Origin: Escherichia phage vB_EcoM_CRJP21
Sequence record: OQ708376.1
Length of the DNA stretch: 64,000 nucleotides
Strand: one strand, 5' to 3'
Below the pieces are notes generated by a model. It worked only from the letters and a program-made list of their open reading frames with translations, ran no database searches and was not told the origin of the DNA. A program made the position numbers and the translations under genes. Positions 27,768 through 39,509 of this stretch are shown here, one piece after another. Every line of letters begins with the position of its first letter. Position 1 is the first letter of the stretch.

Positions 27768-28430
27768 ATGATGAAATCAAAATTAGGTTTGTTTTATAAA
27801 AATTATTTTGTTAAACAACGTAAATTTATAAAAAAATATTTCTCTGGAGAGAAGTCTAGTCCTATAATCTTTAAAAGACCAAGTTATAATACTTACTTAG
27901 CTGGTGCTAAACAGTCTAAGAAATTTATTACTCTTTTACATAAAAACAACATTAAAGCTTCTTATGTTGAAACGAGAAGAAACTCATCAATAACTCCGGG
28001 TGATTTTATTGAGTACGGATGTTTCAATATTAAGTACAATGATAATACATACTTTATGGATATTGATTGTAATACATCCAATCTTTTTAACATTGTAGTA
28101 AATCCATTAAAACAATATAATGTTTATGGTGATTCTATTATCAAATTAATCAAAAACAAAGATGGCTTTGATTTTGAAATAAATGTTTTAGATGATAATT
28201 TTGACGAAGTACCCGTAAACCCTGAAATCTGTGATATTTTAAACAGTTTAAAAGGTAGTACCTACAATATATCATCTGATTTAATGTTTCAGTACTCATT
28301 AATCCATAAAGATATTGAAAAGTATATTGAATGCTCCAGAATTTTGAATTTTCTCTATGATGAATTTAAAAAGAGTTCTAAAATAACTGCATACACTTTG
28401 TACAATATTCCTAAAATGGTGAATCTTTGA
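27768..28430 (+). CDS. hypothetical protein (220 aa)
   Basis: AAGGAG RBS; converges with minus-strand array. Confidence 0.55.
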   Translation: MMKSKLGLFYKNYFVKQRKFIKKYFSGEKSSPIIFKRPSYNTYLAGAKQSKKFITLLHKNNIKASYVETRRNSSITPGDFIEYGCFNIKYNDNTYFMDIDCNTSNLFNIVVNPLKQYNVYGDSIIKLIKNKDGFDFEINVLDDNFDEVPVNPEICDILNSLKGSTYNISSDLMFQYSLIHKDIEKYIECSRILNFLYDEFKKSSKITAYTLYNIPKMVNL

Positions 28431-29563
28431 CAAATACAGTACTGGCAACTCCACCGTCTGTAATATTTTGTCCAGTACTGTAAATTTGTATACCATCGGT
28501 TAAGTAAGTTCTGTATAAAGTTGCTGTAACATATACGTTATTCATATTCATCTCTGTTGGTAGTACACATTTGGTATAGGCCGACACATCGGTTTGTGTA
28601 CCTATACCTAATTGTCCTGCGTTATCGCCTGTGTTATTACCAGTTGCGTAAACACCCAATGAAGTTATAATATGATTAGAAAAATATGAATAACCTACAC
28701 TGCTTCTTATTATATCGCCAGGTGCTTGTGTTGTTTGTCTTAACGAAATATATGTTTGTGATGTAGAACCATTTGCTAACTGACCAAAGTATTGACCACC
28801 ACCATGATATGCAAATAATTTATTAGTACTATTATTATTTGCTATAGCAAAAGCAAAGTAACTTGAGTTTGTTGTATAATCTTTTACTGTATAGGTATTA
28901 GTTATTTGAGAACATAACGTGTACTTTGAATATAACGTCATGTCGGTTGTACCTACGCCTGATATTGCACCAGTATAATACAATCTTCCATCGGTTCCAA
29001 TAAAACCTTGCATAAGAAAATTTGCCAATATTTTGGATGGTGTAACTCCAGTAGGTACTGTTCCTTGTACAAATGATGAAAGTGAATCAGTACTTCTACC
29101 ATTTCCTAGTTGACCATAACTACCATAGCCTGTATTCCATATAGTGTTGTCTGTGCATAATACGCTCAGTGCTCCTGCACTAACTACAATTTGTTTTATT
29201 GTTTTGCCTAGGGCTGTTATTCTATCAAACACTATCTTTGCAGAAGACCACGTTGTTGACTTATCAGTTGATAAACCGAATGATGCACCATTTCCAGCGT
29301 ACCACATCGTATTATCTTTCTTTTTTATTAAGGTTGACTCATACCCGCACCCATAGATCTTCTACGTTTGTATTGCATAAAACCCATTTCGTTTGTGTTA
29401 TAATATTACCTATACCCATTTGCCCAAACTCTTGAGAGCCTCTACTGTACAACGTACCATCTGACATAAGGGCAAAAACTGTCGTATCAGATGAAGCTAT
29501 TTTTGTAACAGAAGGTTGTATGTTCTTTTTTGATGATGTGATAATTCTTCCAAAGGGTAGCAT
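28411..29563 (-). pseudogene. RCC1-like repeat protein paralog, frameshifted (MLPFGRII N-terminus in one frame, body in another)
   Basis: ORFs 29339-29575 and 28411-29307 are N- and C-terminal parts of one paralog; frame change within about 29342-29364; span not a multiple of 3. Confidence 0.5.
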
Positions 29564-29595
29564 TGTATCCTCCAAATGTAAATCGTTATTATATT

Positions 29596-29628
29596 TAGGA
29601 CAAAAAAATGCCAGTACAAAATACTGGC
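29596..29628 (-). terminator. intrinsic terminator (GCCAGTA-N-TACTGGC + T-run on minus strand)
   Basis: hairpin then T8 read on minus strand. Confidence 0.6.
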
Positions 29629-29634
29629 TTTATT

Positions 29635-37111: not shown

Positions 37112-38221
37112 TTATTTTGGTAAATCAATTTTAGTAAAGACTGCAACATCCTCGATTGCACCTGGAATGGCGTAATACGATCCAGTACTATACACATCTC
37201 CATTTTTGGTTAATATCGATGTCAAACCATCACTAAAAAGAACATCCCTAATCTCACTAACTTCAACGGGTAATTGTAAATTGGTAGCACTATATATAGC
37301 ACCAGTTTGAGAATTGTTTAATCCCAAACCACGGTTCGCCCCAACACCCTTCTGATATGTACTAGTAATTACCATTTGTGTAGCAGTATTTAAGGCAGGT
37401 GAATTCGTCATAAACAACGGAGAACTATTAGGCAAAGTACTTAAAGGAACTGCACGGAATGTAGTCGTACCTGAACTAAGAAAGTTTGGAGTTTGACCAC
37501 ATACGAAATATGATGTACCATTATAGTAATTTAATGCATTACCACCAATGGCTGCATCGATTACACCAGAACTACGCAATCCCCAAGTGTTAATTTGTGT
37601 TTGGTTCCCCGTACCATGCTGCCCACTACTATTCCATCCAGAACTATATAGCTTATTATCTAATGTAAGATACATACTATCATTCGCATTGGTCATTACT
37701 TTACGAACGTTCGTAGCACATTGAGTTAATGTGTAAATTGATGATGAACCAATACCCAAAGAACCACGATATCCATTATCTCCTGCACCATAGAGTACTG
37801 AATTAGTGCTAAGTACAAATATTAAACCATTTGTGCATACAATATTAGCAATTTCACTGACTGGTATAGCATTGGTAAACCAACTAGTCCTTTCAACTAA
37901 TACAGTACTGTAAGAAGTAGTTGTAGAAGATGAGAACCAGTACGTTTGACCTGATGTCCATATAGTATTATCATTTTTAATAATAACAAGTGTACGATCA
38001 CCCACGAAAAAATTAGAAACATCTGCACTTACTAATGTCCACGAAGACACCGTGTTGGTATTACCATTTCCAGATTCACCACCTTGATTTCTACCTATGT
38101 AATATAAATCATGTGAATCAGTCAATAAGAATTGACCTTGTGTAGAAGCACCAACTTTAATTATTTTTTTAGGACCAGGGACAATATTTCCATACCTAAT
38201 TATTCTTCCAAAAGGTAACAT
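37112..38221 (-). CDS. RCC1-like beta-propeller repeat protein (paralog 8 of 9)
   Basis: start set at MLPFGRIIRYGN (38221) after AGGAGGGAAT; only 8 nt after upstream stop. Confidence 0.65.
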   Translation of the reverse strand: MLPFGRIIRYGNIVPGPKKIIKVGASTQGQFLLTDSHDLYYIGRNQGGESGNGNTNTVSSWTLVSADVSNFFVGDRTLVIIKNDNTIWTSGQTYWFSSSTTTSYSTVLVERTSWFTNAIPVSEIANIVCTNGLIFVLSTNSVLYGAGDNGYRGSLGIGSSSIYTLTQCATNVRKVMTNANDSMYLTLDNKLYSSGWNSSGQHGTGNQTQINTWGLRSSGVIDAAIGGNALNYYNGTSYFVCGQTPNFLSSGTTTFRAVPLSTLPNSSPLFMTNSPALNTATQMVITSTYQKGVGANRGLGLNNSQTGAIYSATNLQLPVEVSEIRDVLFSDGLTSILTKNGDVYSTGSYYAIPGAIEDVAVFTKIDLPK

Positions 38222-38229
38222 ATTCCCTC

Positions 38230-39432
38230 CTATTGTTGCCATAACTGCGTTGGCATTAATGTTAGTGTAGTAATACTATAAGTGCCATCTGGCAATCTAC
38301 CACCATTTCCATTCCAGCCACCACATGCATATAATTTATAATCTTTAGTAATTATTATGGTTCTGCTCCAATCTTTAGATGCCATAAGAACATTTTCATA
38401 ACCACCACTTATTGCACTAAGATTAAAAATATTCCAAGTTCTAACTAATGTATTAGTTCCATTACCTTCTTGACCATATGAGTTAGCACCACTACTTCTA
38501 ACATATGGTGCGTATTGTGCCATAGGTGCACCAATTGATGCATTTCCCATATTACTTGGACAAATAAAAGTACTGTACTTACTTACATCAACCGTGACCG
38601 ATGTGTTCCTAATTGGTGTTAGCTGATTTACCGATGTAGTCGTACCATTACCCGCTTGTCCAGTACTGTTAGCCCCGCTATAATATACAGACCCACCAGT
38701 AGTAAACCACCAAGTAACATCGTATGTAGTACTAATATGTTCTACATTACTAATCACGAATTTGTTCAAATATACAACAGAACTACCACCACATCCACTT
38801 TCACCAAAGTTATCCTTACCACAAAACCATGCATCTTTATTTGATTTGATATAGTGCGTTCCTTGTAATGAACATGCCATATGTGTAACTTCACCCATAT
38901 TAGTCATAACTGTGAGTGTAGGGATGGAATTTTTATTACCAGAGCCACATTCACCATTGGTATTTCTTCCACACGCAATTACTCTACCATCGGTTAATAA
39001 TATTCTAGTACTTTCACCTATATATACACTCTTGATCATATTAGCCATAACACCTATTTTATTAAATGCAACAGTAACATCAGTCCATGTTGTCAAATAA
39101 CCATTAACAGGTGTTGCATCTCCATAATCAGAAAATGCAGCCACAGACCCAGTGTAGTATATTTTATTATCCAAATCAATCATCAACGAACCTTGAACAC
39201 CAAGCCAAAAGGCTGCACAGTTCCTTGCAAGTACTGTAAATGACGAAACTGCTGCTGAATTCCCAAGACCAAATTGATACATGTTATTACTACCATAACC
39301 ATATAAAGTATTAGTTGGGTTATGTAGATACATACAGTTTGTATAATGTTGTTGTAAAACATCTGAGAACTCTACAGGTTCTGGACCTGGTGCAATATTT
39401 GCGTACTTAACCATTCTTCCAAAAGGTAACAT
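38230..39432 (-). CDS. RCC1-like beta-propeller repeat protein (paralog 9 of 9, first transcribed)
   Basis: N-terminus MLPFGRMVKYANIAPGP; motifs GSNNMYQFGLGN, GANSYGQEGNG; AAGGAGGGAAAT RBS with TATAAT-like box upstream. Confidence 0.7.
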   Translation of the reverse strand: MLPFGRMVKYANIAPGPEPVEFSDVLQQHYTNCMYLHNPTNTLYGYGSNNMYQFGLGNSAAVSSFTVLARNCAAFWLGVQGSLMIDLDNKIYYTGSVAAFSDYGDATPVNGYLTTWTDVTVAFNKIGVMANMIKSVYIGESTRILLTDGRVIACGRNTNGECGSGNKNSIPTLTVMTNMGEVTHMACSLQGTHYIKSNKDAWFCGKDNFGESGCGGSSVVYLNKFVISNVEHISTTYDVTWWFTTGGSVYYSGANSTGQAGNGTTTSVNQLTPIRNTSVTVDVSKYSTFICPSNMGNASIGAPMAQYAPYVRSSGANSYGQEGNGTNTLVRTWNIFNLSAISGGYENVLMASKDWSRTIIITKDYKLYACGGWNGNGGRLPDGTYSITTLTLMPTQLWQQ

Positions 39433-39480
39433 ATTTCCCTCCTTATTAATTATATCATATTTACCCCATAAAGAAAACCC

Positions 39481-39509
39481 TTGACATCCTTTCAGTACTG
39501 GTGTACTAT
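39481..39509 (+). promoter_or_regulatory. promoter TTGACA-N17-TACTAT ahead of small-protein array
   Basis: consensus -35; divergent from RCC1-array promoter region. Confidence 0.5.

Follow-up and report, generated by a model that had tools for sequence, protein, structure and literature searches.

The window analysed here, 64,000 nucleotides of Escherichia phage vB_EcoM_CRJP21 (OQ708376.1), derives from an Asteriusvirus-type jumbo coliphage of the PBECO4/121Q group. It contains a tandem array of RCC1-like genes (Table 1), the sole minus-strand run of large ORFs in a window that is otherwise almost entirely plus-strand, located among small non-structural genes and far away from the structural module. 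A sequence-only reading of this DNA had described nine paralogs of about 370-400 aa sharing an MLPF..Y[GA]N N-terminus. Nine MLPF start codons are indeed present on the minus strand (39432, 38221, 37041, 35830, 34565, 33314, 32091, 30840 and 29563), but only seven of the nine units are intact (369-401 aa), units 5 and 9 being frameshifted, and the N-terminus of unit 9 (MLPFGRIITSSKKN) is without the Y[GA]N element. In unit 5, the leader frame ends after 59 codons and the remainder lies in the +1 frame (ORF 33386-34462), with a single frameshift after about codon 40-59. Unit 9 contains at least two frameshifts in its first quarter, followed by a 298-aa ORF (28411-29307), and shares a 20-nt overlap with the convergent gene 27768-28430. 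The frameshifts of both units are also present in PBECO4, slurp01, 121Q and other relatives, and the stop after 74 codons in unit 9 is found in seven of nine phages compared, the G17 and phAPEC6 copies being variant or record-truncated. Since two of the nine units are frameshifted, it appears that not all units are required. The ATG of unit 2 lies 8 nt past the stop of unit 1, which overlaps the unit 2 Shine-Dalgarno (SD) site. A longer ORF for unit 3 (35902-37203) was rejected as an artefact that reads through the cassette.

Table 1. Units, cassettes and boundary of the RCC1-like gene array, with coordinates in the window
Feature	Coordinates	Strand	Description
Array-boundary region upstream of unit 1	39433..39510	-	contains TAAATATGATATAAT and AAGGAGGG, without hairpin
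Unit 1, body type A	38230..39432	-	intact RCC1-like propeller gene, 400 aa, leader MLPFGRMVKYAN
Unit 2, type B	37112..38221	-	intact, 369 aa; without cassette
Cassette 5' of unit 3	37042..37105	-	hairpin 37105-37087, T-run, TAAATATAGTATAAC, AAGGAGGG
Unit 3, type C	35902..37041	-	intact, 379 aa
Cassette 5' of unit 4	35831..35895	-	site of the one-unit (type J) difference from PBECO4
Unit 4, type D	34640..35830	-	intact, 396 aa
Cassette 5' of unit 5	34566..34632	-	4-nt hairpin loop, TAAATATATTATAAT
Unit 5, type E	33386..34565	-	frameshifted
Cassette 5' of unit 6	33315..33378	-	27-nt string match, hairpin and T-run, folding
Unit 6, type F	32163..33314	-	intact, 383 aa
Cassette 5' of unit 7	32092..32156	-	27-nt string match, hairpin and T-run, folding
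Unit 7, type G	30916..32091	-	intact, 391 aa
Cassette 5' of unit 8	30841..30904	-	one G-U pair in hairpin
Unit 8, type H	29635..30840	-	intact, 401 aa
Cassette 5' of unit 9, degenerate	29564..29628	-	hairpin retained, CCTAAATATAATAAC, TGGAGGA
Unit 9, type I, terminal unit	28411..29563	-	frameshifted

Six units carry a near-identical cassette comprising a predicted terminator hairpin, a putative TAAATA..TATAAT promoter, an SD site and the first 13 codons. The earlier count of at least six such units is confirmed by the number of matches to a 27-nt promoter/SD string (six at up to 3 mismatches, versus 0 expected) and by seven 8-bp hairpins followed by a T-run in the array. The predicted terminator consists of an 8-bp stem and a loop of 3-4 nt, followed by a U-run, and the whole cassette (~75 nt) has a folding energy of -16.4 to -20.4 kcal/mol. 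The copy in front of unit 9 is degenerate, unit 1 has the promoter/SD part only, and unit 2 has none. Alignment of units 3-8 gave identities of 88% for the cassette (-72..-1) and 83% for codons 1-13, versus 56% for the bodies (the floor of the alignment method), which are 22-32% identical at the protein level; exact repeats between cassettes extend up to 56 nt. None of the cassettes scores 9/12 matches to the sigma-70 consensus: TATAAT is present, but the -35 position coincides with the terminator T-run. The TAAATA element occurs 26 times in the window, 16 of these on the minus strand, of which 8 are located 31-34 nt upstream of array start codons, and phAPEC6 has the same core (TATAAATA, ATAAATA or nTAAATA) in front of its major capsid, scaffold, protease and baseplate genes. 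Judged by this motif, the cassette promoter is probably of the late type.

The assignment of the bodies to RCC1-type seven-bladed β-propellers is borne out by profile matches and by structure prediction for one unit. All nine units match the Pfam model WD40_RLD (PF25390), in each case below its whole-domain cut-off, and eight reach the gathering score of RCC1 (PF00415, 24.4-40.4 bits in seven units, cut-off 21.7) or RCC1_2 (PF13540, 24.4-32.8 bits in six units, cut-off 22), the exception being unit 4 (18.9 bits versus 22). The AlphaFold2 (AF2) model of unit 6 is a confident seven-bladed propeller (pLDDT 89.6, pTM 0.87, ~27 β-strands), with residues 1-20 forming a low-confidence extension outside it, and among PDB structures Foldseek ranks highest UVR8, the RPGR RLD, the HERC2 RLDs and RCC1 (TM 0.6-0.79, E 1e-22 to 1e-14). 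On these predictions, the array proteins would belong to the RCC1-like repeat / RLD β-propeller superfamily.

Comparison with related genomes revealed arrays of 9-15 units, rather than a single ordinary tail-fibre gene, with ~27 discrete body types in different orders. No two of the nine phages compared have the same arrangement, types B, D and I alone occur in all of them, and sister phages with ~99% identity over their shared sequence in this region nevertheless differ in unit content. The window array equals the PBECO4 array minus exactly one unit (type J), and its C|D junction precisely combines the PBECO4 C|J and J|D junctions as a chimera, the crossover mapping to the interval from the SD spacer to codon 13 of unit 4, although this particular loss could also have arisen in assembly, by collapse over the repeated cassette. 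For types F, J, L, M, R and B, the leader codon variants differ between phages, and one body type can have different neighbours in different phages, while the boundary region upstream of the array is constant in all nine, whichever body type comes first. These comparisons agree with the earlier suggestion of recombination-competent constant flanks and show directly that the constant block of ~110 nt (cassette and leader codons) is the site of homologous recombination. This recombination runs both within one genome and between co-infecting relatives, deleting, adding, replacing and reordering whole units, so that sister phages hold 9-15 units drawn from at least about 27 body types. The array of SD-2_S15, isolated on Salmonella, is nearly that of the E. 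coli O157 phage PBECO4, which argues against the array as the main host-range determinant.

The same reading had suggested diversifying selection on the propeller. On such a model the bodies would be hypervariable, as in antigenic variation or a DGR-like system, and in its favour paralogues only 22-32% identical follow constant 5' flanks. The comparison among phages speaks against this: variation between them consists of the presence and order of units, not of hypervariation inside them, and bodies of the same type are about 97% identical from phage to phage, with a within-type pN/pS of 0.10-0.68 (pooled 0.20). Intragenic mosaics between body types were not found, the bodies being discrete, and the divergence between types is old, because the family spans several genera. 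Orthologues thus appear to be under purifying rather than diversifying selection, and the diversifying model is very improbable.

The leader MLPFxRhxxYGN extends well beyond this array: its protein sequence is conserved in five phage genera, on no fewer than four folds. It is present in GAP32 gp001, Munch 543-550, XaC1 556-558 and fHe-Yen9-04 g527-531, and in the variant MLPFxxhxxYGN it opens RCC1, Kelch, Laminin_G_3, glycine-rich and further bodies. A glycine-rich body (type S) inside Asteriusvirus arrays starts with the leader, Munch544 matches Pfam Gly_rich_2, and the ten leader proteins of CBB comprise three Kelch, two Laminin_G_3 and five others; a glycine-rich homologue in PVP-SE1 is without the leader. 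Its occurrence on Kelch, laminin-G-like and glycine-rich virion proteins in CBB and GAP32 points to an ancient protein-level signal common to these proteins.

Virion proteomics of relatives favours a virion role. In the phAPEC6 study, mass spectrometry (MS) found eight array proteins in virions (1-5 peptides each), among them gp005, which is 96% identical to unit 6 (as is 121Q gp241). The same list includes replication proteins (topoisomerase, RecA-like and ssDNA-binding), and together with the low peptide counts these make some contamination of the phAPEC6 preparation possible. Of the ten leader proteins identified here in CBB, MS detected eight (up to 50.7% coverage), while GAP32 gp001 was reported as a structural protein by MS and gp002 is annotated as ‘virion structural protein’. 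No leader-bearing genes were found in the 49 kb examined from the head and baseplate module of phAPEC6.

We consider it probable that the array encodes a recombination-shuffled repertoire of late-expressed accessory virion proteins sharing one incorporation leader. The locus would then be a hyperplastic cassette array, in which each unit comprises an intrinsic terminator (8-bp hairpin GCCAGUAC/GUACUGGC and U-run) closing the upstream unit, a putative late-type promoter element with TAAATA 31-34 nt before the ATG and then TATAAT, a strong predicted SD site, a constant leader MLPFxRMxxYGN of 12-15 codons, and a variable body of ~355-385 aa, predicted to be an RCC1-type propeller. Since the crossovers lie within the leader or immediately past it, both late expression and the leader itself would pass to every body that becomes joined to it. 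Most likely the leader takes its body into the virion through docking at a shared site, or targeting to it. More speculatively, the particle may display the bodies as low-copy ligand-binding modules, with the role of auxiliary adhesins attached to the capsid or to the hair-like fibres, and they would be neither primary tail fibres nor DNA-condensing proteins. Against our reading, CBB has whiskers but no RCC1 genes. In favour of an external role, two Pseudomonas phages, Littlefix and PollyC, have RCC1 propellers within their tail-fibre proteins. The AF2 model of an array unit is a single globular propeller without a fibrous or trimeric shaft, and neither the shaft nor the N-terminal adaptor of a tail fibre or receptor-binding protein could be recognized. 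A wider proposal, which is possible although we would not favour it at present, is that MLPFxRhxxYGN serves Rak2-like jumbo phages as a general virion-incorporation tag, forming a plug-and-play display system in which any binding fold behind the tag (RCC1 or Kelch propeller, laminin-G lectin-like, glycine-rich) would be directed to a common site on the capsid or hair-like fibres. If so, Asteriusviruses would have coupled an incorporation tag to a terminator/late-promoter recombination cassette, and their repertoire would be reshuffled at every co-infection.

Other readings of the leader and of the virion data differ in where the proteins act. T4 IPI is packaged in the head and ejected with the DNA, and the internal-protein loci of T-even phages are hypervariable. 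The array leader could likewise be a capsid-targeting sequence (CTS) as in T4, its cargo being packaged in the head and ejected as a variable set of host-directed or anti-defence effectors. Shared features are a short N-terminal leader common to proteins of unrelated fold, low-copy virion association in relatives, a putative late-type promoter and a comparably hypervariable locus, and propellers are common scaffolds for protein binding and inhibition. However, no consistent L/I-x-E (T4 gp21-type prohead protease) cleavage motif follows the leader, Glu being absent from the first 25-30 residues of types B, D, F and G. Further points against it are the bodies themselves, folded propellers of 40 kDa, the lectin-like LamG and Kelch folds, which are more typical of surface binding, and the position of RCC1 domains of other phages in tail-fibre proteins. 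Head packaging is therefore rather unlikely. That the products are instead cytoplasmic late proteins, binding or acting as decoys of host factors, with a leader serving translation or stability and virion MS reflecting carry-over, would fit the weak phAPEC6 peptide evidence with its accompanying replication proteins and the non-structural neighbourhood of the array. We regard it as very unlikely, given leader-bearing proteins in three independent virion proteomes, including that of CBB with its high detection rate and coverage, and the conservation of the leader across genera and folds.

Extremely improbable, finally, is a role as DNA-condensation or inner-body proteins organising the packaged 350-kb genome, a reading that lies behind the GenBank product names and a suggestion in the phAPEC6 paper, and that draws on the RCC1 domain name, the virion association and the phAPEC6 inner body without identified components. 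Copy number and types vary freely among near-identical phages of the same genome size, CBB is entirely without an RCC1 gene, the same leader is found on Kelch, LamG and glycine-rich proteins, and the array proteins are not consistently basic (pI 5.1-9.0, balanced charge), a composition that does not hint at binding to DNA. The name itself derives from eukaryotic RCC1, a Ran exchange factor, which says nothing on DNA compaction, and to our knowledge the E. coli host has no Ran. The product name ‘DNA condensation protein’ is transferred by homology only.

Among known systems, the RCC1-like ‘DNA condensation proteins’ of Rak2-like jumbo phages are the gene family of the array, at the same locus (e.g. 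GAP32 gp001, 121Q 234-248, and phAPEC6 gp001-010 and gp549-551). The papers on CBB and phAPEC6 already remark that RCC1 genes are multi-copy, and detection by virion MS was published; accounts of the array extend to a copy count and the DNA-condensation guess. In the literature searched on this array, we found no account of the cassette anatomy, type repertoire or crossover mapping, nor of purifying selection or a leader shared with non-RCC1 folds.

The T4 internal proteins and Alt carry a CTS leader, are encoded at polymorphic loci and are expressed late. The array family resembles them in having a short conserved N-terminal leader on otherwise unrelated virion proteins, but differs in lacking a conserved protease site after the leader and in its bodies, which are β-rich binding folds of 22-43 kDa. 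The multi-receptor-binding-protein sets of large myoviruses (CBA120, phi92, the branched fibres of RaK2) and T4 Hoc-type decorations likewise attach several binding modules to one virion via a common element, with a repertoire that differs between phages, whereas the array proteins have neither a fibrous shaft nor a large N-terminal adaptor domain, the one that was modelled being a single globular propeller behind a 20-residue extension, and are encoded outside the tail module.

The sequence-only reading knew of no described phage system like this array. Multi-copy RCC1 genes have, however, been published, and T4-type phages offer an analogue in their PeSL (promoter-early stem-loop) cassettes (Arbiol et al. 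2010, PMC2839356; Comeau et al. 2014, PMC4122927). The PeSL and the array cassette both form a small composite of a terminator, a promoter and an SD motif, repeated intergenically through a hyperplastic region, and in both, indels and replacements among close relatives end inside the motif, and recombination between copies shuffles whole genes. The array cassette differs from PeSL in having a TAAATA late-type core and no -35 box, in place of the sigma-70 early consensus, and a stem-loop that is always upstream of the promoter and of mixed AT/GC rather than polyG/polyC composition. Its homology block moreover includes ~40 nt of coding sequence, which specify a conserved protein leader, and the genes that it shuffles are paralogues of one virion-associated family instead of unrelated ORFans.

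The nine genes of the array (units 1-9) all start with the minus-strand codons ATG-TTA-CCT-TTT (MLPF) and form a real, non-random feature, the conserved N-terminal leader (MLPFxRMxxYGN) being confined to the array within the window. Megablast places the window among Asteriusvirus, ~350-kb jumbo coliphages (PBECO4, 121Q, slurp01 and phAPEC6), with 96-99.5% identity in shared segments; 36 Asteriusvirus records match the region, and no record covers at least 80% of it in a single piece. The sequence-only reading had described nine RCC1-like propeller genes of about 370-400 aa with cassette-like 5' flanks. 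The array and its fold are borne out: eight of the nine units attain the gathering score of RCC1 or RCC1_2 in Pfam, and all nine match WD40_RLD, below its cut-off. An AlphaFold2 model of unit 6 (pLDDT 89.6, pTM 0.87, ~27 strands), built on an input alignment of only 20 rows, as the word-indexed homologue search yielded few relatives, places residues 1-20, including the leader, in a low-confidence extension beyond the propeller. Its Foldseek matches include UVR8, the RLDs of RPGR and HERC1/2, and RCC1 (E 1e-22 to 1e-14), and the viral library gave homologues in GAP32 and in Yersinia, Erwinia and Cronobacter jumbo phages, as well as tail-fibre proteins containing RCC1 domains in Littlefix and PollyC, which infect Pseudomonas. 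The described length holds for seven units (intact ORFs of 369-401 aa) but not for unit 5, with one frameshift, or unit 9, with at least two and a leader departing from consensus past residue 8; these lesions are also found in relatives carrying the two units.

The cassette-like flanks are also borne out, with corrections for three units: a near-identical cassette (terminator hairpin, TAAATA..TATAAT promoter and Shine-Dalgarno (SD) site) lies upstream of units 3-8, but is partial at unit 1, absent at unit 2 and degenerate at unit 9. Its 27-nt promoter/SD string occurs six times in the window against zero expected, there are seven copies of the 8-bp hairpin GCCAGTAC/GTACTGGC with a T-run behind it, cassettes within the window share exact repeats of up to 56 nt, and the predicted folding energy of the entire ~75-nt cassette is -16.4 to -20.4 kcal/mol. 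Among units 3-8, identity is 88% in the cassette and 83% in codons 1-13; the bodies are at the floor of nucleotide alignment, with 22-32% protein identity between units. The cassette contains no -35 box, and a scan with the sigma-70 consensus failed to detect its promoter. TAAATA lies 31-34 nt 5' of eight of the nine array start codons and is otherwise rare in the window (26 copies, both strands). Capsid, scaffold, protease and baseplate genes of phAPEC6 carry TATAAATA, ATAAATA or nTAAATA upstream, a late motif of this type was put forward by the CBB authors by analogy with T4, and the TAAATA..TATAAT layout also occurs 5' of family members in Munch, GAP32 and XaC1. From these motifs, array transcription is probably late. 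An IMG/VR scan with the 21-nt cassette core returned 121Q itself and four other matches; none of the four lies near a leader-bearing ORF, and the two inspected had arisen by chance in AT-rich DNA. On this evidence the cassette seems restricted to Asteriusvirus.

RNA folds of the cassettes pair the terminator U-run CUUUCUUAUU with the downstream SD region AAUAAGGAGGG, and thus the ribosome site could be occluded in read-through transcripts and not in those from the cassette promoter; the pairing may also be plain U-rich/purine-rich complementarity. Just beyond the array, two plus-strand genes are separated by a related hairpin of 10 pairs (ATCCAGTACTTAATAGTACTGGAT), which could be a bidirectional terminator; apart from those of the array, no other CCAGTAC..GTACTGG hairpin occurs in the window. 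The 64-kb window contains no tRNAs. Public annotation of the array locus contains errors: some annotated starts run upstream through the hairpin via the ATG in AATGCCAGTAC, and the phAPEC6 record leaves two full units (types B and D) unannotated and the type S gene annotated merely as a 303-nt fragment (gp004).

Coordinates of features in the window and in related phages
Feature	Position (strand)	Remarks
MLPF starts, units 1-9	39432, 38221, 37041, 35830, 34565, 33314, 32091, 30840, 29563 (-)	
Cassette with U-run/SD pairing (example)	33315-33388 (-)	
Related hairpin	27732-27755	
Tandem small ORFs	39535-43585 (+)	about 20 ORFs, 59-77 aa; divergent paralogue family adjoining the array; consensus xHKEFY...ILxLIxxY, mean column identity 31%
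Five consecutive ORFs	25969-27726 (+)	104-141 aa; hydrophobic, membrane-like look; stops and starts abut or overlap; may be paralogues; 'membrane protein' genes of CBB syntenic, just before its leader-protein cluster
Stretch with no convincing ORFs	43600-45500	coincides with GC skew returning to positive
Public annotation errors	window 32163-33380, 35902-37203; PBECO4 gp292; phAPEC6 extract 2433-3613, 6062-7324	
MLPF-leader clusters (Kelch, Laminin_G_3, unassigned)	CBB extract 18197-23465, 12369-13690; GAP32 extract 1523-3658	syntenic with the window array
Start of phAPEC6 record	1-1217	first 1.2 kb, 100% identical to the gp550 unit near the record end

For comparison, the loci of the window and eight relatives were split into units at MLPF starts, and bodies were aligned globally and typed by average-linkage clustering; grouping whole units by blastn with single linkage was dropped, as nearly all chained into one group. 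The nine phages carry 9-15 units, with 31 raw body clusters, or about 27 once variants of the same type are merged. Bodies are about 97% identical within types, different types have no segments in common past the 5' end, and B, D and I alone are common to the nine phages. The arrays are thus distinct selections, in differing order, from a pool of discrete modules.

Order of body types in five arrays
Phage	Array order
Window	A B C D E F G H I
PBECO4	A B C J D E F G H I
slurp01	L M N A B C J D E O P Q I
121Q	J R B C D S T F U V W I
UB	L B G D S O a b V Q H I

Up to the SD spacer, the C-D junction of the window agrees at every base with the PBECO4 C|J junction; from codon 13 on it agrees with the J|D junction, the 42-nt stretch in between being identical in both PBECO4 junctions. 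This pattern appears to be the trace of homologous exchange within the constant block that removed or inserted a single unit, although the absence of J from the window is alone no proof, because assembly from short reads can likewise lose a unit between repeats. The leader codons of type F are MLPFARMIQYGNIKP in the window and MLPFGRMVKYGNIAP in 121Q and phAPEC6, with the codon variant of types J, L, M, R and B likewise differing between phages, and every array has the same special region upstream of its first unit, which may be of type A, J, L or M, indicating that crossovers recur in the first ~40 nt of coding sequence. The variation in copy number, the varied orders and the crossovers in the constant block bear out the cassette shuffling looked for among relatives, and this multi-genome pattern cannot be an artefact. 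An apparent c-R-c-R duplication at the phAPEC6 record ends was kept out of the evidence: it runs from one end of the record into the other, carries no annotation and may stem from an assembly overlap left untrimmed.

Diversifying selection on the propeller bodies, the sequence-only reading of their divergence, is not supported: Nei-Gojobori counts give a within-type pN/pS of 0.10-0.68, and the pooled value of 0.20, an average over sites within types, shows the bodies to be under purifying selection overall. The type I downstream ORF lies outside this estimate, its anchor having recovered identical copies only. Synonymous divergence ranges from 0.004 to 0.24 across types, a spread of at least 10-fold, suggesting that the units may have separate histories.

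The leader, in the form M[LIF]P[FI]xxhxxYGN, also begins RCC1-like proteins elsewhere: in GAP32, in Salmonella phage Munch (seven tandem genes, 543 and 545-550, together with the glycine-rich 544), in Xanthomonas phage XaC1 (three genes) and in Yersinia phage fHe-Yen9-04 (five). These genes show operon-like packing and have no per-gene cassettes. Nor is it tied to propellers. Type S of the Asteriusvirus arrays is a 245-aa glycine-rich non-propeller with leader and cassette as in other units; its counterpart Munch544 matches Pfam Gly_rich_2, which neither the type S body nor the glycine-rich CBB_144 reached, both being without any Pfam match, and PVP-SE1 gp19 has a type S-like body without the leader. 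The CBB locus syntenic with the window array is a minus-strand cluster of seven genes, each starting MLPF, of which three encode Kelch propellers, two Laminin_G_3 proteins and two proteins without assigned fold, and gp442, gp443 and CBB_144 bring the CBB leader proteins to ten. In phAPEC6, the 49 kb of head/baseplate module examined contained no leader. The 220-aa and 223-aa array-flanking genes were rejected as mutual paralogues or homologues of the virion protein GAP32_002 (E at least 2). Judged from these distributions, the leader appears older and wider than the array.

Virions of three phages contain leader-bearing proteins. The CBB paper reported GAP32 gp001 as a virion protein by MS, with multiple homologues in 121Q and PBECO4, and CBB virion MS detected eight of the ten leader proteins (CBB_144, 536, 537, 548, 549, 551, 552 and 553; 2-8 peptides, coverage up to 50.7%); the leader is present on five of the six structural proteins that its authors termed CBB-specific. 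The phAPEC6 paper counted eleven RCC1-like proteins, eight of them detected in virions (1-5 peptides each), and speculated on a role in DNA condensation or the inner body, and a 2026 paper noted that RCC1-like genes vary between phages of the same species. The literature found on the leader string or the function of these proteins was limited to the CBB, phAPEC6 and fEgEco12 remarks, with no published analysis of cassettes, repertoire or leader found. The array as such is already known; the diversification mechanism and common leader appear undescribed.

We infer that incorporation of a body into the particle depends on the leader; with crossovers located in the leader or beyond it, the bodies would then be plug-and-play. 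The bodies could, speculatively, be displayed externally as auxiliary binding modules, as suggested by their folds (lectin-like or propeller), by the hairy appearance of the virions and by the RCC1 domains that other phages have in their tail fibres; against this count the whiskers of CBB, which lacks RCC1 genes, and a Salmonella isolate with the array of PBECO4. The main rival is a leader acting as an internal targeting signal like the T4 capsid-targeting sequence (CTS), with bodies as ejected effectors, which fits the logic of the leader but is opposed by the lack of a protease site after it. DNA condensation has no support beyond the GenBank product names ("regulator of chromosome condensation" or "DNA condensation protein"), and sits poorly with pI values of 5.1 to 9.0, a freely variable gene set and a leader common to non-RCC1 folds.

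Leader-directed incorporation would replace the uninformative, name-derived label "DNA condensation protein" with a testable model for roughly 10-15 genes per genome, with the 12-residue leader predicting which uncharacterised Rak2-like phage proteins are virion accessories. Leader-bearing proteins are also candidate components of the hair-like appendages on 121Q, phAPEC6 and CBB, which are so far unexplained. If sufficient for incorporation, the leader could serve foreign-domain display on jumbo-phage particles. In public genomes, the array locus is systematically misannotated and at risk of collapsing during assembly.

Among known systems, the window array works like the promoter-early stem-loop (PeSL) cassettes of T4-type phages. 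It differs in that its cassette has no sigma-70 consensus early promoter and its homology block includes the coding leader, and would widen PeSL-type modular shuffling from T4-like early ORFans to late jumbo-phage genes for virion-associated proteins.
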